Assembly: GCA_023818895.1 (NCBI GenBank)
Contig: JAMWCX010000001.1
Span: forward strand, 269,789-301,788
DNA from: Candidatus Omnitrophota bacterium
Lineage (GTDB): Bacteria; Omnitrophota; Gorgyraeia; 2-01-FULL-45-10
Direction of reading: 5' to 3'
Length of the DNA stretch: 32,000 nucleotides
Below, piece after piece: positions 8,513 through 29,884 of the stretch (positions are counted from its first letter, which is position 1; every line of letters starts with the position of its first letter). The position numbers were made by a program, and so were the translations under genes. The notes below the pieces were generated by a model. The model did no database searches. It saw nothing but the letters and a program-made list of their open reading frames with translations, and was not told the DNA's origin.

Positions 8513-9091
8513 TTAATCTATCACGCGCTCTATCGGAATGTCAATTTTTCTTTTATAACGGCCTGTCAATTTTCCTGATCCCAGAATATGTCCATTAATC
8601 GCCGACAAGAGGTCCTGTTTTGTTGAACCGGCCTCCAGATCAAGGGTAGTGTCAATAGCATACACCGCGAAGACATATCTATGAACACCGTACGGCGGAT
8701 AAGGGCCATCATAACCTATTTTTTTAAAATCGTTTATCCCTTGGATCGCGCCATTATCAAGAATCTCTGTTTGTGGGACGCCTTCAGGTAGTCCGCCATC
8801 GGCTGGCGGTATGTTGAAGATTACCCAATGAACCCATGTACCGGAAGGGGCATCCGGGTCATCACAAATGAGCGCGACGCTCTTTGTGCCGGAAGGTAAG
8901 TCAGACCATTCTATCGGCGGCGAGAGGTTTTCCTTGTCGTAGGCGTACCTTTCCGGCATCATCTGGCCATCCTTGAATGACGCGCTTGTCACTTTTATTC
9001 TCTCAACAGCCATCAAGCTTGGGGTAATATAAAAGCAAAGGGCCGTTATCATGAGTAACGTTAAAGAAATCCGAATCTTTTTTCCACTCAT
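8513..9091 (-). CDS. secreted YbhB/YbcL-family PEBP (Raf-kinase-inhibitor-like) protein
   Basis: 192 aa. N-terminal signal-like segment (KKIRISLTLLMITALCFYITPSLMA). PEBP core motifs CDDPDAP...WVHW and GYDGPYPP...HRYVF. GGAGGA lies 3 nt before the ATG. Confidence 0.85.
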   Translation of the reverse strand: MSGKKIRISLTLLMITALCFYITPSLMAVERIKVTSASFKDGQMMPERYAYDKENLSPPIEWSDLPSGTKSVALICDDPDAPSGTWVHWVIFNIPPADGGLPEGVPQTEILDNGAIQGINDFKKIGYDGPYPPYGVHRYVFAVYAIDTTLDLEAGSTKQDLLSAINGHILGSGKLTGRYKRKIDIPIERVID

Positions 9092-9100
9092 AGATCCTCC

Positions 9101-10738
9101 CTATTTTTCGATCTCAATCTGATATAAATCCGAATAGGTGCCCGTAAGCCACATGTATTTACCATCCCAGGCTATTCCGGTAGTCATGTCGGCCGGCGAA
9201 TCAAAATACCCGGTTATCGCGCGTTTCTCCATATTTATCCTGTATACGCGTCGGCTGTACCAGCTCGACACCCAGAGATATTTACCGTCCCATGCCAGCT
9301 GATCCGGCTCGTGTATGCCCCTGAATGGCATGGTGGACACTATATTCAAGTCAGCGTCAAGTTCCACCAGGTCGAATTTCGTGCCGAGACCCCTCCTCCA
9401 GGTTACGACATAAAATCGCCTTCCGTCCCACGCCAGGCCGGCCGGATGCGCCGGCTCGAACGACGTTTCGGCTTCAGACGCAAGTCTGTCACCCTCCAGC
9501 CTTACCCTGTATATCTTTTTTGAGTACCATTCTGTGGTAAAAAGGGCTCCGTCCTCACGCCGTATCAGAGCTTCAGGAAAATCGGCGACTGGCTCAATCT
9601 CTCGTAAAACCTTCCCTGAAGATACATCAAGCACCCATATCTTTCCTTTTTCTCCGTTCGCAAGCCAAAGGTTTTCACCATCATAAAATAGCCCTTCGTG
9701 ATACCAGCGAGGTATTTCGATCTTACGCACAACCCTGGCGCTTATCTTTTTGCAATCGGCGGAAGGGCTAATATGTCTTGCCTCCGCGCCGGAAAAGAGC
9801 GCGAAAAAAAGAAGGATCGCGGCCAGACATCGCCAGAGGATTTTTCGCGGCACCCTTCCTAAGAGGTAATCACAAAAATAACAGTGGTCGGACGTCCTGC
9901 CGGGGAATCGCACCCCCGAGGATTCGAGTTTTTTGCGCACGCTGCTCAGGCCGTCGCAGAACACTGCCCGCACAAACCGGTTATTATGCGCCTTATTCAT
10001 TATATCTTTGGCGGTATCGCGTTTTATGTTGCCTATTGTCAGCTCGTCGCGCTCATTCGCATAACCGCAGCATGGTTTCACGTCTCCGTTTGGCATTATA
10101 AAAAAGACATTGCCGGGGCCTTTGCAAAAGTCTTCCTTAAACCATCTCCCATCCCATGGATCGCGCAGACGAAGCGCTTTTCCTACAGACGAAAAGTTGA
10201 CTTTTAGCTTTCTTATGAATATATCGCTTCGGCGCATGATTCTGTCAAGCGCCTTCAGTTTTTTCGCCGTAGCGGCATCGCGAACACCTGTTACATACGC
10301 GATTGAAACGATATCCGGCCTCCTCCACACAGCGACGGCTCTCTTTATGAAATACGCAAGTTTCTTTACGCTCTGATTGTGAAAAGCGTCCACACTGACG
10401 CAAATAGAACCGTCATATCCGGCGTCGCGCAGCTTGCAAAGCGCAATCTCGAGAGTGCGCCTGCTCCGCCACCATACGCCGTTAGTCATTACCCTGCCGA
10501 AGAGCAGTCCCTGCCTTACCGCCTCCTCTGTCACGGCGCACATGAAATCAATTTCAAGAAACGGCTCTCCGCCGGTAAAACCGACCCGCCTTACACCTAT
10601 CCTCCTGCAGCCGGAAAGAAATCCGGCTGCGAGGGAAGCTGCAAGCCGCTTCCCGGAGCGCCGGACGTCACAGTGCCCGCAGGCGAGGTTGCACCTGGCC
10701 GAAGGTGAAAAAAGGACTTCTGTCGGTCTGAAACGCAC
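9101..10738 (-). CDS. fusion protein: radical SAM enzyme with Cys-rich SPASM/twitch-like region, then a TM/signal-like helix, then a glutamine-cyclotransferase-like beta-propeller
   Basis: - The radical SAM part carries CNLACGHC (CxxxCxxC), FTGGEPF, and later Cys clusters PCCGY / FCDG / HCYFCDY.
- A hydrophobic stretch follows: RKILWRCLAAILLFFALFSGAEA.
- About 230 aa then carry four repeats of a G[LI]xxDGxxxW motif (EGLFYDGENLW, AGLAWDGRRFY, DQLAWDGKYLW, TGIAWDGKYMW).
- I place the start at GTG 10738, preceded by GAAGGATCC and 7 nt after the rubrerythrin stop.
- The ORF-track ATG at 10834 would overlap rubrerythrin by 89 nt. Confidence 0.8.
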   Translation of the reverse strand: MRFRPTEVLFSPSARCNLACGHCDVRRSGKRLAASLAAGFLSGCRRIGVRRVGFTGGEPFLEIDFMCAVTEEAVRQGLLFGRVMTNGVWWRSRRTLEIALCKLRDAGYDGSICVSVDAFHNQSVKKLAYFIKRAVAVWRRPDIVSIAYVTGVRDAATAKKLKALDRIMRRSDIFIRKLKVNFSSVGKALRLRDPWDGRWFKEDFCKGPGNVFFIMPNGDVKPCCGYANERDELTIGNIKRDTAKDIMNKAHNNRFVRAVFCDGLSSVRKKLESSGVRFPGRTSDHCYFCDYLLGRVPRKILWRCLAAILLFFALFSGAEARHISPSADCKKISARVVRKIEIPRWYHEGLFYDGENLWLANGEKGKIWVLDVSSGKVLREIEPVADFPEALIRREDGALFTTEWYSKKIYRVRLEGDRLASEAETSFEPAHPAGLAWDGRRFYVVTWRRGLGTKFDLVELDADLNIVSTMPFRGIHEPDQLAWDGKYLWVSSWYSRRVYRINMEKRAITGYFDSPADMTTGIAWDGKYMWLTGTYSDLYQIEIEK

Positions 10739-10745
10739 GGATCCT

Positions 10746-11324
10746 TCAGAAATTCTCCGCCAGCAGCTCGTAATAGCTCTGAGGATGCTTGCACGCAGGG
10801 CACTCTGCGGGCGCCTCTTTTCCCTCTGTGACATACCCGCAGTTTAGGCAATGCCATTTAACAGGTGATTTGCGCTTGAAGACCTCTTTTTTGGCGATAT
10901 TGTCGATGAGCCTTCTGTATCTCGACTCGTGGAACTTCTCGACCTTGCCTATCTGGTCAAAGGATCTGGCGATATCATCAAACCCCTCTTCTTTAGCGAC
11001 CTTGGCGAAGTCCGCATAGATAACCGTCCATTCCGTCTTTTCGCCTTCGGCGGCCGCCTCAAGGTTCGCCTTCGTATCTTTTATCGATCCGGCGGGATAA
11101 CCGGCGGTTATCGTAACTTCCCCTCCCTCAAGATATTTGAAGAAAACCTTCGCGTGTTCTTTTTCGTTCTCGGCGGTCTCTGTAAAGATATTCGCGATCT
11201 GCTCATACCCTTCTTTACGCGCGGCGCTTGCAAAGTACGTGTAACGATTCCGCGCCTGCGACTCGCCGGCAAAGGCGGTCAAGAGGTTCTTTTCTGTTTT
11301 AGTCCCTTTCAATGATTTCCCCAT
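10746..11324 (-). CDS. rbr: rubrerythrin
   Basis: Ferritin-like diiron domain (LLTAFAGESQARNRY...EKEHAK...) plus a C-terminal rubredoxin-like CLNCGY...CPACKHP. I place the start at ATG 11324 (MGKSLKG...) because AAGGAGGGTG lies 9 nt upstream. The ORF-track start at 11333 is a GTG. Confidence 0.95.
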   Translation of the reverse strand: MGKSLKGTKTEKNLLTAFAGESQARNRYTYFASAARKEGYEQIANIFTETAENEKEHAKVFFKYLEGGEVTITAGYPAGSIKDTKANLEAAAEGEKTEWTVIYADFAKVAKEEGFDDIARSFDQIGKVEKFHESRYRRLIDNIAKKEVFKRKSPVKWHCLNCGYVTEGKEAPAECPACKHPQSYYELLAENF

Positions 11325-11329
11325 GCTTC

Positions 11330-12763
11330 TCACCCTCCTTTTTTAAGATACTTATTTTCGACGAACGCGCCCCACCTGCGCTCAAACTCTTTTTCCGACA
11401 TCAGGAAGGCGTCGTCTATAGCGTTGACGGCGTGCTGCCCGCCGGCTATTTTTGAAAGAATATCCCGCAGCCCCGGCAGCCCCCATTCATCAACTATATA
11501 CTCGACCAGCGTATACGCCAGAACATAGTATAGCGCGATATCAGGTTTTGCGGCAGCGTCATCCCTAAAAGCGTTTTCCAGCAACCTCACGGATATGTCG
11601 CGTCCGCCCAGAACTTTTTCCGTGAGGTTAATAACCATCCCTGGCCTGGTCCATTTAATCTCTTCCCAAACCGCGATACCCTCTCCCAACCAGGCGGGAC
11701 AATTATTTTTCGTCTTCGCCGAAAGGACAGCATGTGTATACTCGTGGTAAAGGAAGCTGGCGAGTTCGTTTTTATCTGATGAGCCGTCAGGCAACGGTAT
11801 GCGCATATTCCCATCGTAAAAAGCCCTTACAATATTGGGCATTTTAAATATATTCTTGAAATTCTGTGTCGAATAAAAAAATACCGCTGTCTTTTGGTCA
11901 GGATAATAATCCAGGTCGCCGCCGATGTCAAGGTAGGCTCTTTCGAGAACGCTGCCGATAAAGCCTATATCTGCTGGAACATCTTTCTCAAGCCTTATAT
12001 CGAAGTGCGGAAGCCTATGCAACTGCTTGGATTTCGAAAGCGCTTCCTCATCTCTTACTTTCCGAAGCCTCTCGGCTATTTCCTTGTTTGCGGCGTCAAG
12101 TCGAAACGCTTTGCTGAAATAAAATTCAGCGGATGCCAGATCATTCCTTTTGTAGTACACATCACCGAGAAGCGAGTATACGCGGCTGTCTTCATGAGCG
12201 AGTGCCGCCTGCTTAAGAAGCAGTATGGCGGAGGTGTCTCTGCCGGCCTTATACTCTTCCAAGGCGTCATTATGAAGCGCTACGCTTAAGGCCTTGCTCG
12301 CCTTATCCGAACCTTCCGCCACCATCCGCGCCTTAACGAGGCTGTCCGTCGCGCCGAACCAATCCCGTCTACCTATGTCCGAAAGCGCTTTTTTGGCGTA
12401 TGTCAGGGCTAGATTCTGTGTGGTGTAGGTGTTATACGCTATCTGCTGGGCCTTCTCCATAAACCTTATCGCCTCATCGTACTTTTCGGCGCCGGCAAGA
12501 GTCTGGGCGTATCTTGAATATGCGTAGATTAGGCTGTCGCGTATATATTTATTTTCGGGGGAAGAGCGGTAAGCTTTCTCAAAATAATCTATGGCTTGCG
12601 CATACATACCCTTGTCAAGAAATCCTTCAGCCCTTCTCGCATACTCGAATGAGCCGGGTATCCGTTTTTCCGCGATACCGCCGTTCTTCAAAAAAACAAA
12701 AAATGTGACGATCATTACGCCAAGCGCGGACAGGAGGAATATCTTGAAACGGGCGCCAGTCAT
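11330..12763 (-). CDS. membrane-anchored TPR-repeat protein with C-terminal peptidase-MA-like (HExxH) domain
   Basis: 477 aa. N-terminal TM segment (FKIFLLSALGVMIVTFFVFL), several TPR-like repeats (YAQAIDYFEKAYRSSPEN..., YDEAIRFMEKAQ...), then LYHEYTHAVL...WLGEGIAVWEE, which is typical of the Peptidase_MA_2-type fold. Confidence 0.72.
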   Translation of the reverse strand: MTGARFKIFLLSALGVMIVTFFVFLKNGGIAEKRIPGSFEYARRAEGFLDKGMYAQAIDYFEKAYRSSPENKYIRDSLIYAYSRYAQTLAGAEKYDEAIRFMEKAQQIAYNTYTTQNLALTYAKKALSDIGRRDWFGATDSLVKARMVAEGSDKASKALSVALHNDALEEYKAGRDTSAILLLKQAALAHEDSRVYSLLGDVYYKRNDLASAEFYFSKAFRLDAANKEIAERLRKVRDEEALSKSKQLHRLPHFDIRLEKDVPADIGFIGSVLERAYLDIGGDLDYYPDQKTAVFFYSTQNFKNIFKMPNIVRAFYDGNMRIPLPDGSSDKNELASFLYHEYTHAVLSAKTKNNCPAWLGEGIAVWEEIKWTRPGMVINLTEKVLGGRDISVRLLENAFRDDAAAKPDIALYYVLAYTLVEYIVDEWGLPGLRDILSKIAGGQHAVNAIDDAFLMSEKEFERRWGAFVENKYLKKGG

Positions 12764-25696: not shown

Positions 25697-27850
25697 TCAT
25701 ACTTTCGCCGGCTGTTTATCAGGCATCGGCATAGCGGGAAACTCAAGCGTAAAAGTGGTCCCCACGCCGACTTTCGTATTCTTCAGGAATATCCTGCCGC
25801 CGTTTTTCTCAACTACCTGTCGAACTATGAAAAGCCCGAGTCCAGTCCCTTTACCGGGCTCCTTTGTGGTAAAAAACGGGTTGAAAAGCTCTTTGATCTT
25901 GTCCTCCGCAATACCGGAACCGCTATCCTGGATATCTATGACAACCTTCGCGTCTTCACGTTTAGCGCTTATCGTTATACTGCCCTTTTCGCCTATCGCC
26001 TGCCCGGCGTTCCTTATAAGATTGAAAAGAACTTCCTGAAATTGCTTCCTGTCGACAAATATTTTAGGAAGCCCATCTTCTATCTTCTTGTCAAATTCTA
26101 TCTTTTCAAGCCTAAGCTCGTAGCCGACCAGGCCGAATACCTCATCAATCTCCTTGCCAATATCAACTATTTCCGCTTCGCCCTTTGCTGGTTTCGCGAA
26201 GCCGGAAAGTTTTTTCGTTATGGCAGTGGCTCTATCGGTCTCCTTTATGACTTTGCCCATTATCTCTTCGGCTTTTTTCAAAAGTTCCTCAGGGCTCTTG
26301 TTTTTATATAATCCATCTTTCATATTAAGAAGGAAGGCCTCGCATTGCCCCCTCGCAATACCGAGAGGATTACATATCTCATGATTTATGCCAGCAGAAA
26401 GAGTGCCTATAACCGCCATCTTCTCTTTTTGGGCTGCCTCAGCTTGCGTTTTGCCCAGTTCCTCAAAGAGCTCGGCATTAGACACTGCTATGGCAAGGGT
26501 TCTTGCAAGCGGCAAAAGTATATCAAGATCATCCTGGGTGTAGTCTTCATCGGATTTCTTTTTCCCTAAAGACAATATTCCTATCACTTTATCGTGCAAG
26601 ACCATTGGAATAATTAATTCTGCGCTCAATCTATCCATAACAGATAAAATAGAGGCAGGAACGGTAACATTTTTTTCATAAAATTCGGTACGCAAAAGAT
26701 AGCGATGCGTTTGTTCAAAGTATTTAACAGCGACATTTATTCTATCTAAAGTTATTAGCGGATCCTTAAGATTTTTCGAGGCCTTAACTATATAAAGACA
26801 CTTTTCATTATCAAAAAGTAATATCGAGCAGGATGCCAACTTTATTATGTCATCGAGCTTATTTATCGTAAGATTTACAAGCCTATCCAGGTCTAGAACG
26901 GTTAGCACTTCAGAGGTGAATGTCTTTAGTAGGTCCTTATAGTCATATTTTTTTTGAAAAAGATATTTATTGGTAATGTTTATTAAGAAGCTTTCCAAAG
27001 GACGGAACATAAATGTTACTATTACTATGCTTGGAATTATTGAAAGCCAACGATTTGAGAATACGTATTTTTCGAAAAATACTTGTCCTAAAAAGGCAAA
27101 GATAGCAAAAACAGCATATACGCTTCCAAAAAGACCCGCAAAGACAAGAGTCTTTTTGACTAATATCTCAATATCGAGAAACTTATGTTTAACTATAGCA
27201 TAGGCTGTCATGATGACATAAACCGCTACCAAGCAATTCAGAAAAGGCGGCACTGGCACTCCGAACCATGGTAGATAATTAGTAGATCCGCCGACAAAGC
27301 CAATAAGCGTTCCTATGCCGACAAGAAAAATCTGCGCTTTTTTTTGGTGGTCTGCGCTGCCGTAGCTGGAAAATAGCAAATATATAGATTTACCAGTGTA
27401 CCAAAAAAATGTTAAAAGAAACGGCACATATAACACCCCAGGCACACCATAATATGGCATACCGCCTATCGGCTTCATGTCAGGGATATAGTATCTACTA
27501 AATGAAAATGCCAAAAAGAAAAGTGCTAACAAATATCCGGCGAGCAGCTCTCTCCGGTTCCTTCTATTGATGAATGCTGTAACAAAATGATAAAAGCCTA
27601 TAGGTATTAATATTGCTCCGATGTGAAGGATCCTAAACCAAAAAAGACATGCCTCCTTGCTATCAGCCAAGGGCCAGAAGATGTATGGATAACTCCAGGC
27701 CGCCACATAAAGAGCAAATAACGCAAAGGTTTTATTAACTATACTACGCCTGTTATTAAAGTAAACAAATATGGTTAAAAGGCTTGAGGTTATGGCATTT
27801 ATGAAGCCGGAAATAGATATAAATATCAGAAACGGATCCATCTTGCTCAT
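25697..27850 (-). CDS. sensor histidine kinase: multi-pass membrane N-terminal domain, GAF, HisKA, HATPase_c
   Basis: 717 aa. The first ~290 aa hold about 8-9 hydrophobic segments with short loops (my reading by eye), resembling 7TM-type kinase N-terminal sensor domains. A GAF-like region follows. H-box GINHEICNPLG. N/G1/G2 boxes LFNLIRNAGQA, QDSGSGI and GTGLGL. ATGA overlap with the ketosynthase stop. Confidence 0.9.
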   Translation of the reverse strand: MSKMDPFLIFISISGFINAITSSLLTIFVYFNNRRSIVNKTFALFALYVAAWSYPYIFWPLADSKEACLFWFRILHIGAILIPIGFYHFVTAFINRRNRRELLAGYLLALFFLAFSFSRYYIPDMKPIGGMPYYGVPGVLYVPFLLTFFWYTGKSIYLLFSSYGSADHQKKAQIFLVGIGTLIGFVGGSTNYLPWFGVPVPPFLNCLVAVYVIMTAYAIVKHKFLDIEILVKKTLVFAGLFGSVYAVFAIFAFLGQVFFEKYVFSNRWLSIIPSIVIVTFMFRPLESFLINITNKYLFQKKYDYKDLLKTFTSEVLTVLDLDRLVNLTINKLDDIIKLASCSILLFDNEKCLYIVKASKNLKDPLITLDRINVAVKYFEQTHRYLLRTEFYEKNVTVPASILSVMDRLSAELIIPMVLHDKVIGILSLGKKKSDEDYTQDDLDILLPLARTLAIAVSNAELFEELGKTQAEAAQKEKMAVIGTLSAGINHEICNPLGIARGQCEAFLLNMKDGLYKNKSPEELLKKAEEIMGKVIKETDRATAITKKLSGFAKPAKGEAEIVDIGKEIDEVFGLVGYELRLEKIEFDKKIEDGLPKIFVDRKQFQEVLFNLIRNAGQAIGEKGSITISAKREDAKVVIDIQDSGSGIAEDKIKELFNPFFTTKEPGKGTGLGLFIVRQVVEKNGGRIFLKNTKVGVGTTFTLEFPAMPMPDKQPAKV

Positions 27851-29070
27851 TCTTCGTATTTTTTAAGAACACAGGCGGCGCACTTTCCGCCAAACGCATA
27901 GCTGTTAATCAATGCGGCTTTTATATTTTTTCTTAGCGGTTTTTCAACTATCAGATTTAAGTTTGAATTCTTAAACAAATTTTTTGTATTTAGTGTATGG
28001 GGCGCGATCCCCTCTTTTATGGCCAATGCGGTTGTGGCAATTTGTAATGCGCTTGCGGCGGCAAGAGGGTGCCCTATGAGAGGCTTAATTGATGTTACGG
28101 GAATTTCCGCCAACGATTTCCCAAAACAAGCCTTAAGCACAACCGATTCAAATAGGTCAAAATGACCAACCCCCATGCCATGCGCATTTATAAAGTCTAC
28201 TTGTTCTTTTTTTATACCAGCATACTGAATAGCACCGTCTATGGTTTTAACGGCTACTTCGCCATGATGCTCGCGCTTAAAATGATTAAAACCTTCACAT
28301 AAGACGTTTACACCCCCTATCTCACAATAAATATTGGCGTTTCTCTTAATTGCATGGCCGAGGTCTTCGATGATAAACATAGCGGCTCCCTCTCCAAGAA
28401 CAGTGCCATCAGCATTTTCGTCGAACGGCCGTATCCTATCGTTTGTAAGCGCCTTAATGATATTTAGCCCCGCGTATGGCAACGGTGCAAAAGCCGATTC
28501 CGAACCACCCACAACCATAGCGTCGTAATTTTCATATTTGATCTTCTTCACAGCTATATCCAAGGCAGAAACCGATGAAATACACGCGGACGAAACAGCT
28601 TCCGAGCAACCTCTTATCCCAAGCTCAACCGATATATCAGATGGAATGCAATTATGTAGCGCCATATGGCCCAAACACTTATGGACATGTTCATAGGTAC
28701 TATTCTCTAGGACTCTCTGTTGGTGAAGAATAAAAGATATTGTGCCAAGAGTTGTCCCAACTATGACGCCAATACGATCCCTGTTTATTTCACTAATATT
28801 AAGACCCGCATCCTTAACAGCCATAACCGAAGAAGCCACGCCGAGTTTGGATGTTATATCCATAGCAGTTGCGTCATTCTTTCTTATGTATTCCAAAGGA
28901 TCGAAATCAACAACCTCTGCCCCAAGAGATGTTGGGAATTTGCTGGTATCAAATCTGCTCAATTTTCTTATTCCGGAAATTCCATTAAGAGCATTATTCC
29001 AGAAAATATTTTTACCGGAACCTATGGGCGTAATAACCCCGATGCCAGTAATTACCACTCTCTTGGGCAT
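27847..29070 (-). CDS. beta-ketoacyl synthase of the KAS I/II (FabB/FabF) type, divergent
   Basis: MPKRVVITGIGVITPIGSG N-terminus. The catalytic Cys sits in VSSACISSVSALD, with His in FINAHGMG, Lys and His in SIKPLIGHPLAAAS, and a C-terminal NSYAFGGK. I prefer ATG 29070, which gives TAGtATG with the upstream stop. The ORF-track start at 29100 adds 10 residues and a 29-nt overlap. Confidence 0.85.
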   Translation of the reverse strand: MPKRVVITGIGVITPIGSGKNIFWNNALNGISGIRKLSRFDTSKFPTSLGAEVVDFDPLEYIRKNDATAMDITSKLGVASSVMAVKDAGLNISEINRDRIGVIVGTTLGTISFILHQQRVLENSTYEHVHKCLGHMALHNCIPSDISVELGIRGCSEAVSSACISSVSALDIAVKKIKYENYDAMVVGGSESAFAPLPYAGLNIIKALTNDRIRPFDENADGTVLGEGAAMFIIEDLGHAIKRNANIYCEIGGVNVLCEGFNHFKREHHGEVAVKTIDGAIQYAGIKKEQVDFINAHGMGVGHFDLFESVVLKACFGKSLAEIPVTSIKPLIGHPLAAASALQIATTALAIKEGIAPHTLNTKNLFKNSNLNLIVEKPLRKNIKAALINSYAFGGKCAACVLKKYEE

Positions 29071-29071
29071 A

Positions 29072-29884
29072 CTAGATTTTTCTACCCGTGCAGTATTCAT
29101 ACATACCCATATTATCGAGGCTTATTATGACGTCTCTAAAACCGGCTTCAAGAAGCCACTGTCTATATTGCCTGGGCGACCTCAAGAACATAGTCCATTT
29201 TTTCCCATTCATTGTTAACCCTATATCTTTCATCAAATCTGCGTTTGAATTGCTCGCCTGAGCTGTAAATAGTACAAGACCGCCGCAGGAAAGGTGCTTA
29301 TATATTTCAGCAAGAAAACTTTTAACTACTTCATCGCTTTGCATTTCAAAAAAGCCCGTTGTCATTATAATGTCCGGTATCCAGTTCACTTTTTTTGAAA
29401 AATTTTTCAAATGGCCGAGCGAAAAAAGATTGGCCCTTGCATATCGAATCGGTTTATTCCCAGCCAGGATCTTGCCGAAATTAACAGATCTTTTATCAAT
29501 ATCAAGACATAAGGCTTCGACATGGTTTTTGCTATGCTCATCCACTAAGTCAACCAAGTACCGTGCCGGGCCAGATGCAAGATCGAGTATCCGCGTCTTT
29601 TTTCCAAAAAAAATATTATTTTCGATTTCATTCAAAATTATCTTTATTATAATATCCTTTTTACGCCTGGTTGCCTTGACGGTTGGCAGGTTTAAAAGAA
29701 CGGAATCGACAAACTTTCCAACAGGCGTTATACCTTTCGGGTGTTTTCTATATATATGGTCAATATTAAGCCCGGAATCAGCCGATCCGCCTATGATATT
29801 CCGACCTAGTTTGCTAATTGAAAATATCGGTCTAAGTATCCTTTTATTAAAGAGTTGCTGTATTGTTTTTATAAACCCATCCAT
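29072..29884 (-). CDS. class I SAM-dependent methyltransferase with ~95-aa N-terminal extension
   Basis: 270 aa. Motif I RILDLASGPARYL, an acidic post-I residue in ALCLDID, and later GGLVLFT. The subfamily and substrate cannot be recognised by eye. Confidence 0.78.
   Translation of the reverse strand: MDGFIKTIQQLFNKRILRPIFSISKLGRNIIGGSADSGLNIDHIYRKHPKGITPVGKFVDSVLLNLPTVKATRRKKDIIIKIILNEIENNIFFGKKTRILDLASGPARYLVDLVDEHSKNHVEALCLDIDKRSVNFGKILAGNKPIRYARANLFSLGHLKNFSKKVNWIPDIIMTTGFFEMQSDEVVKSFLAEIYKHLSCGGLVLFTAQASNSNADLMKDIGLTMNGKKWTMFLRSPRQYRQWLLEAGFRDVIISLDNMGMYEYCTGRKI

Follow-up and report, generated by a model that had tools for sequence, protein, structure and literature searches.

A stretch of 32,000 nucleotides from Candidatus Omnitrophota bacterium (assembly GCA_023818895.1, contig JAMWCX010000001.1, positions 269,789 to 301,788 of the forward strand), called the window below, carries on its minus strand a gene whose 545-residue product has two dissimilar halves. 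The N-terminal half is a radical S-adenosylmethionine (rSAM) enzyme, predicted to be cytoplasmic. The C-terminal half is a propeller with the fold of type I glutaminyl cyclases, predicted to be exported, and an internal signal peptide connects the two. The fusion is genuine and conserved, and joins two Omnitrophota genes that were once separate neighbours. Confidence in this architecture, and in export of the propeller, is high. The tentative reading that the fusion is a module for maturing exported proteins in two compartments, for which we infer the topology, the cleavage, the chemistries and the shared substrate, is judged to fall slightly short of an even chance.

The fused gene and its homologues

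A reading made earlier from the sequence alone had described a single uninterrupted open reading frame (ORF) between positions 9101 and 10738, separated by 7 nt from an upstream rubrerythrin gene and by 9 nt from a downstream gene for a secreted PEBP. ORF analysis agrees with this description and adds that the frame lies on the minus strand, where it runs from 10738 down to 9101 and encodes 545 aa without interruption. The PEBP family was confirmed by Pfam and NCBIfam, and rubrerythrin by NCBIfam. The maximal ORF would begin at an ATG at 10834, but it runs into the rubrerythrin gene. The GTG at 10738 yields the N-terminus MRFRPTEVLF..., in agreement with the N-termini of stand-alone homologues. 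The window protein is identical to the 545-aa NCBI entries MCM8761192.1 and MCM8790360.1 (P0001), which come from Candidatus Omnitrophota metagenome-assembled genomes (MAGs) and are annotated 'SPASM domain-containing protein'.

A homologue search covering 5.8 billion proteins found about 58 full-length fused homologues with 46-66% identity, and every named match belongs to Omnitrophota. Many stand-alone rSAM proteins, about 320 aa long, came out of the same search, and a search with the propeller only gave at least 159 further clusters, consisting mostly of proteins of about 250 aa. The fused homologues derive from independent NCBI, ENA, JGI and Logan assemblies, so that for practical purposes the fusion is not an assembly artefact.

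Three types of fusion occur: rSAM-propeller, propeller-PEBP and rSAM-propeller-PEBP, the last being represented by five proteins that bear a C-terminal PEBP. Split versions, with the rSAM, the secreted propeller and the secreted PEBP as separate proteins, are also common. In many genomes the three are adjacent in the same order, and the conserved gene order, which is also that of the window, is pta-ackA-plsX-fabH-fabD-[TPR peptidase]-[rubrerythrin]-rSAM-propeller-[PEBP]-gpsA-hom-thrC. The halves are thus found both fused and as adjacent genes within a conserved neighbourhood, which answers the earlier concern that the fusion might be peculiar to one assembly.

A scan of species-representative genomes found 55 propeller loci, labelled either Omnitrophota or as unnamed 'uncultured Planctomycetia' MAGs; Candidatus Omnitrophus magneticus is among them. 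A census of gene context covered 60 propeller loci and counted rSAM genes within 5 kb. The rSAM and propeller are fused in 9 of the 60, are separate adjacent genes in 8, and in a further 4 the rSAM gene lies beside a propeller-PEBP fusion. The order leuS-propeller-comEA-comEC is found in 16-17 of the loci that have no rSAM gene (this context is seen in L016, L021-L024, L028-L032, L034-L035, L037-L045 and others). Farther upstream in these loci there are genes whose translated sequences look agmatinase-like and S-adenosylmethionine-decarboxylase-like.

In a tree of the propeller domain the unlinked forms branch at the base, and one large clade takes in every form that is linked or fused. Within this clade the rSAM-propeller fused state changes at least three times in each of 60 bootstrap replicates, with a mode of six, and the propeller-PEBP fused state changes at least six times in every replicate. 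Fusion and fission have occurred several times.

Two loci depart from the usual arrangement. In L033 (1895-4869) and L046 (1852-4887) a radical-SAM protein of about 600 aa, YgiQ-like as read from its translated sequence, replaces the EpeE-like rSAM between fabD and the propeller. A membrane PAS/GAF protein is also present, and in L033 a gene for a secreted cyclophilin immediately follows that of the propeller.

Structure of the two halves and their junction

The rSAM half contains the motifs CNLACGHC (CX3CX2C), GGEPF, PCCGY, FCDG and HCYFC. The first two had been taken as signs of a radical-SAM core, and the Pfam Radical_SAM profile (PF04055) bears this out, scoring 32.0 bits (cut-off 29.5). 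Eight cysteines (C16, C20, C23, C205, C223, C224, C286 and C289) are invariant across 62 aligned homologues, as are C16-x3-C20-x2-C23 and FTGGEPF. The three remaining motifs had been proposed to mark auxiliary Fe-S sites. The cysteines of PCCGY and HCYFC are indeed invariant, whereas that of FCDG varies among the homologues and is not conserved.

The Pfam SPASM profile scores 36.8 bits (cut-off 21.5) over residues 205-256 and is matched only in its positions 1-52 of 67. The full SPASM motif was taken as CX9-15GX4C, gap, CX2CX5CX3C, gap, C, with seven cysteines, and its CX5CX3C part is absent from the 62-homologue alignment. The presence of C205-x12-G218-x4-C223 and C286-x2-C289 without CX5CX3C indicates a twitch domain for one cluster, with one Cys to spare. 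The SPASM-like region of the sequence-only reading therefore stands as an additional Fe-S domain, but as a one-cluster domain of the EpeE/YydG twitch type and not as a seven-Cys SPASM domain. Five invariant cysteines after the core, together with the EpeE-like fold of the predicted model, place the rSAM half in the twitch type.

The best profile match among PDB sequences is YydG/EpeE 8AI6 (E=3.5e-16). It extends from residue 8 to 309, end to end, with both the PCC motif and the C-terminal CxxC in register. A weak match to 7TOL, the structure of a tetraether synthase, came from the same search. AlphaFold2 modelled residues 1-300 with a predicted local distance difference test (pLDDT) score of 91.1. 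When this model was compared with the PDB using Foldseek, the top nine matches were all EpeE, with template-modelling (TM) scores of 0.72-0.77, followed by SkfB at 0.62; the anSME structure 4K39 is also among the fold matches. A full-library profile search with the rSAM half yielded 73 clusters at E<=1e-30. YydG was the best NCBIfam match for all of ten more distant rSAM relatives that were scanned, and G-x4-C-C is retained in most of the out-of-family YydG-like relatives found in the library search. Judged from sequence and model, the rSAM half resembles an EpeE-type enzyme in all features examined, but it lies outside the TIGR04078 equivalog family and is a distant relative.

EpeE has one auxiliary cluster in an extended twitch domain, and Cys223, the second residue of its Cys-Cys pair, gives a hydrogen to the C-alpha radical on the side opposite to SAM, thereby inverting the residue (PMC13012085, PMC8326336). 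Allowing for the chain numbering of 8AI6, which is offset by 25 relative to that of EpeE, this residue aligns with Cys224 of the window protein, which would be the candidate hydrogen donor. Epimerase-type chemistry in the rSAM half, as the alignment and the model suggest, is given an even chance.

Several distant YydG-like radical-SAM proteins (P0351, P0317, P0324, P0343 and P0377) bear N-terminal extensions of 200-330 residues. The extension of P0351 contains a PLAT/LH2 domain, with which radical-SAM enzymes are not usually combined.

The AlphaFold2 model of residues 323-545 (pLDDT 97.4, predicted TM score 0.93) has 21 strands arranged in five blades. The six top propeller matches in a Foldseek comparison with the PDB are all type I glutaminyl cyclases with TM scores of 0.72-0.78: 2FAW and 2IWA from papaya, 3NOL from Zymomonas, 3MBR from Xanthomonas and two chains of 3NOK from Myxococcus. 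Other propellers score mostly between 0.45 and 0.65, with the exception of E. coli YjiK (3QQZ) at 0.72. The propeller had been proposed earlier to be similar to glutamine cyclotransferases and to have four repeats; the fold is supported, with five blades instead of four. Profile and structure searches run separately on each half, as had been suggested, thus support an EpeE-like fold and a cyclase-fold propeller.

The active site of the papaya glutaminyl cyclase consists of nine residues: F22, Q24, F67, E69, W83, W110, N155, W169 and K225 (PMC9436314). The pocket was mapped through HMMER alignments to 3NOL and 2FAW, and residues were counted in 119 family members. F67, the catalytic E69, W83 and W169 correspond to family positions 65, 67, 82 and 171, where the same residues are invariant. 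F22 is matched by Tyr at position 24 (115 of 119) and Q24 by Glu at position 26 in all 119, as in the Zymomonas and Xanthomonas enzymes. The other three are replaced: W110 by Ala or Thr at position 111, N155 by variable residues at position 157, and K225 by an invariant Thr at position 212. With six of the nine kept or conservatively replaced, catalytic Glu included, and three replaced, the pocket is related to that of the cyclases, yet remodelled. The family also has invariant residues of its own, namely H25, N39, W125, T131, E155-P156, D162, W167 and W208. Loci of all three context groups share the same pocket residues, with or without an adjacent rSAM gene, which indicates a single orthologous propeller family. 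Cyclase activity of the propeller, as its pocket residues would allow, is plausible rather than established, and is rated a little less likely than not.

Stand-alone rSAM proteins terminate in ...VPR(E/K)IL.RCL(D/K). In the fused proteins this tail passes directly into a hydrophobic stretch and then a small-x-small motif, and the conserved YHEG of the propeller follows about 25 residues farther on. The junction is identical in all fused proteins, the propeller's own start and n-region being gone. The propeller gene of split loci opens with a typical Sec signal peptide, such as MITQIKNRLHRLNPVIIICVFCVLSVFGNAYA followed by EIDT in L004. The corresponding segment of the window protein, VPRKILWRCLAAILLFFALFSGAEA, had been described as either a signal peptide or a transmembrane helix. 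It is read here as a signal peptide kept from the time when the propeller was a secreted protein on its own, and not as a stable membrane helix, because its hydrophobic core is only about 12 residues long.

Signal-peptide features were scored by a home-made rule that considers the charge of the n-region, a core of 7-15 residues and small residues at positions -3 and -1. By this simple rule, position -1 is A, S or G in 61 of 61 fused proteins and position -3 is A, V or S in 56 of them. The median uncharged run is 18 residues, the same as in 131 split proteins, and the small residues at -1 and -3 are conserved equally well in both sets. Segment 296-320 would export the C-terminal half in an N-in/C-out topology. 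As a site of the signal-peptidase type is retained, the halves are probably parted after export; cleavage at AEA-320 by signal peptidase I is considered moderately likely.

Two other export routes were considered and rejected. The fused proteins have no twin-arginine consensus, as would be needed for Tat export, and no conserved lipobox Cys, as would be needed for lipoprotein sorting.

On the minus strand at 9851-9860 of the window, the codon of the first signal-peptide residue is an in-frame GTG (9853-9851), with AGGAAGG just upstream. This GTG could serve as an internal start for a separate secreted propeller beginning MPRKILWRCLAA... Such a start is not conserved, since the homologous residue in other fused proteins is often Ile, Leu or Ala.

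Possible function of the fusion

In the proposed mechanism, the rSAM half would act at the cytoplasmic face of the membrane and abstract a hydrogen from a peptide or protein, most likely at C-alpha. Cys224 would return a hydrogen, so that the residue is epimerised before the substrate is exported. The internal signal peptide, inherited from the former downstream gene, would keep the rSAM half in the cytoplasm and send the remainder through Sec, and signal peptidase I would probably cut after AEA-320 and free the propeller. The propeller would then bind the N-terminus of exported clients and convert Gln or Glu into pyroglutamate, or catalyse a closely related reaction, in cooperation with the PEBP encoded 9 nt downstream. 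The client would be encoded outside the window, the candidate being a 124-aa secreted protein from a sister lineage. Whether the halves share a pathway at all is regarded as evenly balanced.

The candidate client is encoded between the rSAM and the propeller in one sub-lineage, sister to that of the window. A metagenome scan with a profile of this small protein added seven close loci (L064-L070), in all of which the genes run rSAM, small protein, propeller, in some with PEBP as well, and in every close locus examined the small protein lies between the other two. The family comprises 48 clusters, the named members of which are all Omnitrophota 'hypothetical proteins'. Their signal peptides close with a small-x-small motif followed by Q-Y-T-(N/D), and of the 48 clusters about 36 are predicted to begin with Gln, and about 10 with Glu, once mature. 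A conserved core, PGME-RKVNNDVSVLVPKG (PGME-RKVNNDV(S/T)VL-PKG ... DEYAARKF), precedes a C-terminal coiled coil. The protein matches no Pfam family, giving coiled-coil noise only, and a profile comparison with the propeller found no relation. The near-invariant Gln or Glu at the predicted N-terminus makes it a plausible cyclase client, and the position of its gene between a peptide-type rSAM and a cyclase-fold enzyme fits a client shared by both.

The sequence-only reading had remarked on the absence of a small precursor ORF. This is correct for the flanks of the gene in the window, which has no short precursor gene of the kind that defines a classical cluster for ribosomally synthesised and post-translationally modified peptides, but related loci hold the candidate client with its N-terminal Gln. 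The candidate is itself a secreted coiled-coil protein and not a short peptide. A precursor was also sought beside the stand-alone rSAM genes of L003, L062 and L063, where only a methyltransferase-like gene and regulators were found; a 69-aa ORF near a stand-alone rSAM gene was rejected as spurious because it overlaps a mis-called start. In L069 (2999-4372) one reading frame encodes both the rSAM and the small protein, whose own Met and signal peptide are kept. This single case is either a second type of rSAM fusion to a secreted partner or an indel error, the latter being suggested by the sister locus L070, where the two are split. Distant homologues of the small protein (P0425 and P0432) are found in unrelated contexts, so that only the close family belongs to the module.

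We infer two-compartment maturation with better backing than the sequence-only reading had for it, the repeated fusions and the candidate client having been added. Several observations weigh against it. About 39 of the 60 propeller loci in the census have no rSAM gene within 5 kb, stand-alone rSAM genes sit in unrelated contexts, and the adjacency of rSAM and propeller apparently arose once, in one clade of the propeller tree. On the side of the propeller, the window protein scores 20.2 bits with Pfam Glu_cyclase_2 (PF05096), just under the cut-off of 22.3, although many homologues do show this match; the sequence-profile similarity by itself is weak and not cyclase-specific, and three of the nine pocket residues are replaced. 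On the side of the rSAM, the window protein scores 47.6 bits with NCBIfam YydG (TIGR04078), for which the equivalog cut-off is 300. The topology and cleavage were judged by simple sequence rules, and the internal position of the signal peptide is unusual. The small secreted protein was sought in all six frames of the window and not found, and no client gene was found there. Finally, a crude signal-peptide scan of 472 genes from the window and related loci showed no general preference for Gln, which occupies position +1 at 11 of 112 predicted sites (Glu at 10 of 112), the predictor being noisy.

The main alternative is that the two halves have unrelated jobs and that the fusion is a tolerated by-product of tight operon packing. 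The rSAM would be a housekeeping enzyme and the propeller an independent periplasmic one; a stop codon between the co-directional genes would have been lost, and signal peptidase would restore two proteins. Such a fusion would be nearly neutral, given the retained cleavage site, and could arise readily in a housekeeping block with spacers of 4-10 nt. The occurrence of both genes apart and in unrelated contexts in many Omnitrophota genomes, the single apparent origin of their adjacency, and a propeller pocket that is the same with or without an adjacent rSAM gene all agree with it. It sits less well with a fused state that changes at least three times and with fused lineages that are old, as their 46-66% identity indicates. 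Moreover, each PEBP fusion requires that a whole signal peptide be deleted, and the recurrence of such fusions at least six times implies selection. The insertion of a secreted protein with an N-terminal Gln exactly between both genes also suits a shared pathway. Unrelated jobs for the two halves are on this evidence rather unlikely. If true, the locus would still be a documented case in which a cytoplasmic Fe-S enzyme became fused to a secreted protein more than once, with an internal signal peptide rescuing the product.

The rSAM might instead take as its substrates the exported proteins that the downstream genes encode, namely the propeller, the PEBP and the small protein. It would then be a dedicated maturase acting before Sec, as anSME and QhpD are (see below), and fusion would put enzyme and client in one chain. 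The rSAM is always directly upstream of a secreted protein and is fused to whichever comes next, the propeller in about 60 cases and the small protein in L069. Its fold family (EpeE, SkfB, anSME, SuiB) works on polypeptides, and the three replaced pocket residues could mean that the propeller requires an unusual, modified site. Known maturases, however, use Cys or Ser residues of a kind that is not conserved in the propeller or the PEBP, and co-translational export would leave little time for modification in cis. The rSAM and propeller are unlinked in many genomes, and L069 is the single possible indel error mentioned above. This arrangement is considered improbable.

The location of the module between plsX-fabH-fabD and gpsA, which are genes of phospholipid synthesis, in nearly all linked loci raises the possibility that the rSAM acts on a membrane lipid or lipid-linked sugar and that the propeller and PEBP handle the flipped product. 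Tethering of the rSAM to the membrane is tolerated, and the weak match to 7TOL points in the same direction. The PEBP fold binds phospholipids and anions, and twitch-type radical-SAM sugar epimerases exist, NeoN being an example. The top sequence and fold matches of the rSAM are nevertheless peptide-modifying enzymes, by a clear margin, and those of the propeller are cyclases of peptide N-termini. The synteny may be no more than a gene order conserved in a single phylum, and the N-terminal Gln of the small secreted protein indicates a protein client. A lipid or lipid-linked sugar as substrate is considered similarly improbable. Lastly, an assembly or gene-calling artefact that joins what are two genes in reality is hardly credible, for although split versions are common and metagenome assemblies do contain frameshift errors, the identical 545-aa protein occurs in two MAG records and its roughly 60 fused homologues, from four independent data sources, have the same junction.

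All parts of the system belong to known fold families; what is new is their combination, the internal signal peptide, the recurrent fusion to PEBP and the candidate client. To our knowledge, radical-SAM peptide epimerases and glutaminyl cyclases are each soluble enzymes that act alone. Literature searches turned up no link between a radical-SAM enzyme and either a glutaminyl cyclase or a PEBP, and no work on this family of Omnitrophota, in agreement with the earlier impression that the architecture is uncharacterised. Public annotation calls members of the family either 'SPASM domain-containing protein' or 'glutaminyl-peptide cyclotransferase'.

The closest known relative of the rSAM half, EpeE of B. 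subtilis (8AI1-8AI6), has a similar length of about 300 aa, the CX3CX2C motif, the Cys-Cys pair, the CxxC and one auxiliary [4Fe-4S] cluster, which is predicted here. It differs in having only about 18% identity, and the window rSAM is fused to an exported domain and restricted to Omnitrophota. The partners encoded by epeXEPAB, namely an EpeX-like precursor, the EpeP protease and the EpeAB transporter, are not found in the window, which has a TPR metallopeptidase upstream instead; sister loci hold the unrelated small secreted protein. The type I glutaminyl cyclases CpQC, ZmQC and XcQC share with the propeller its size, its five blades, six pocket residues and an extracytoplasmic location, the last being predicted here, but they have only 14-21% identity, and the papaya residues W110, N155 and K225 are replaced in the window family.

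The 'Q-rule' of Bacteroidetes offers a parallel on the side of the client. In it a periplasmic cyclase at the inner membrane acts on an N-terminal Gln exposed by signal peptidase I; the P. gingivalis enzyme PgQC is a type II (alpha/beta) lipoprotein, and 77% of the signal peptidase I substrates of that species begin with Gln (PMC10653852). The small-protein family described here would fit such a pattern. The crude scan here gave about 10% Gln at position +1, against 77%. We know of no radical-SAM partner in the 'Q-rule' system. Cytoplasmic rSAM enzymes that have auxiliary clusters and are encoded beside a secreted protein modified before export are exemplified by anSME, which acts on sulfatases, and QhpD, which acts on QhpC. 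In contrast to the window rSAM, they have a full SPASM domain with two auxiliary clusters, target Cys or Ser residues or form thioethers, and are not known to be fused to their clients. The downstream PEBP is a clear member of the YbhB/YbcL family with a signal peptide like that of E. coli YbcL, but in Omnitrophota it is repeatedly joined to the C-terminus of the propeller, a partnership not known to us for any bacterial PEBP, no literature search having been aimed at it.

A more far-reaching form of two-compartment maturation would be a new maturation system in which a membrane-tethered rSAM installs D-residues or another radical modification before export, a complex of PEBP with the remodelled cyclase-fold propeller caps the new N-termini once the signal peptide has been cleaved, and the small protein is a dedicated client. 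The fusion would then be a self-splitting polyprotein, with the rSAM tethered beside the Sec machinery by the signal peptide of its exported partner. This extended form is considered unlikely. If two-compartment maturation is true, a conserved link across the membrane by way of a retained signal peptide, together with the PEBP, would constitute a pathway that hardens exported proteins, D-residues shielding the chain and pyroglutamate capping its N-terminus. It would operate in bacteria that are uncultured and very small, from a phylum with a barely known envelope biology, and would give a concrete partner to bacterial PEBPs, whose function is largely unknown. The candidate client has a defined predicted N-terminus (QYTN...).

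Neighbouring genes

The features of the fused gene, its neighbours and the small-protein loci are collected in Table 1.

Table 1. Positions of the fused gene, its parts and its neighbours in the window, and of the small secreted protein in related loci
Feature	Position	Strand	Basis
Whole fused gene, 545 codons + stop, GTG start	9101..10738	minus	Uninterrupted ORF; ~60 full-length fused homologues
Radical-SAM enzyme, EpeE/YydG-like twitch type, residues 1-295, predicted cytoplasmic	9854..10738	minus	Pfam, PDB profile search, AlphaFold2, Foldseek
Radical-SAM cluster motif CX3CX2C	10670..10693	minus	Read from sequence; invariant in 62 homologues
Twitch-type auxiliary-cluster domain, C205-x12-G218-x4-C223-C224 ... 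C286-x2-C289	9872..10126	minus	Five invariant Cys; Pfam SPASM
Cys223-Cys224 pair, aligned to EpeE Cys222-Cys223	10067..10072	minus	HMMER alignment to 8AI6
Predicted internal signal peptide, residues 296-320, VPRKILWRCLAAILLFFALFSGAEA	9779..9853	minus	Positive n-region, ~12-residue hydrophobic core, AEA site
Five-bladed propeller, type I glutaminyl-cyclase fold, residues 323-545, predicted exported	9104..9772	minus	AlphaFold2, Foldseek, pocket mapping
Secreted PEBP, YbhB/YbcL family	8513..9091	minus	Pfam PBP + TIGR00481
Rubrerythrin, cytoplasmic peroxide defence	10746..11333	minus	NCBIfam rubrerythrin 301 bits
Membrane-anchored TPR + HExxH metallopeptidase (Peptidase_MA_2)	11330..12763	minus	Pfam
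Small secreted protein (related loci)	L001:6994-7368, L017:297-668, L018:1009-1416, L020:4544-4915, L025:285-659, L026:4550-4921; also L002

The PEBP scores 145.2 bits with Pfam PF01161 (cut-off 24) and 157.5 bits with TIGR00481 (cut-off 57.75), and is thus a member of both families. Where it is joined to the C-terminus of the propeller in other genomes, its signal peptide is replaced by a short linker, which places the PEBP on the propeller's side of the membrane. It would be a functional partner of the propeller.

Rubrerythrin is encoded upstream in many, but not all, related loci, and its link to the module is uncertain. The TPR metallopeptidase adjoins the module in L004, L007-L010, L014 and the P0025 locus, and may be a processing protease of the same pathway. 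It is also found near propellers that have no rSAM (L035:1590-3437 and L046:474-1907).

Between positions 1 and 21175 of the window, the fused gene is embedded in a block of core housekeeping genes that includes a LeuA/CimA-like synthase, aspartate kinase, phosphoglycerate mutase, thrC, hom, gpsA, fabD, fabH, plsX, ackA, pta, coaD, rsmD and recG. In related loci, too, the module is flanked by this block; the setting is therefore not that of a mobile or secondary-metabolite island.

At the other end of the window (27847-29884, minus strand), genes for a beta-ketoacyl synthase and for a Methyltransf_20-family protein overlap by 29 nt. Upstream of this pair are genes for a 7TM-GAF histidine kinase, two receiver proteins and an HD-GYP-like GAF protein. 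The region may be a regulated unit for lipid modification.

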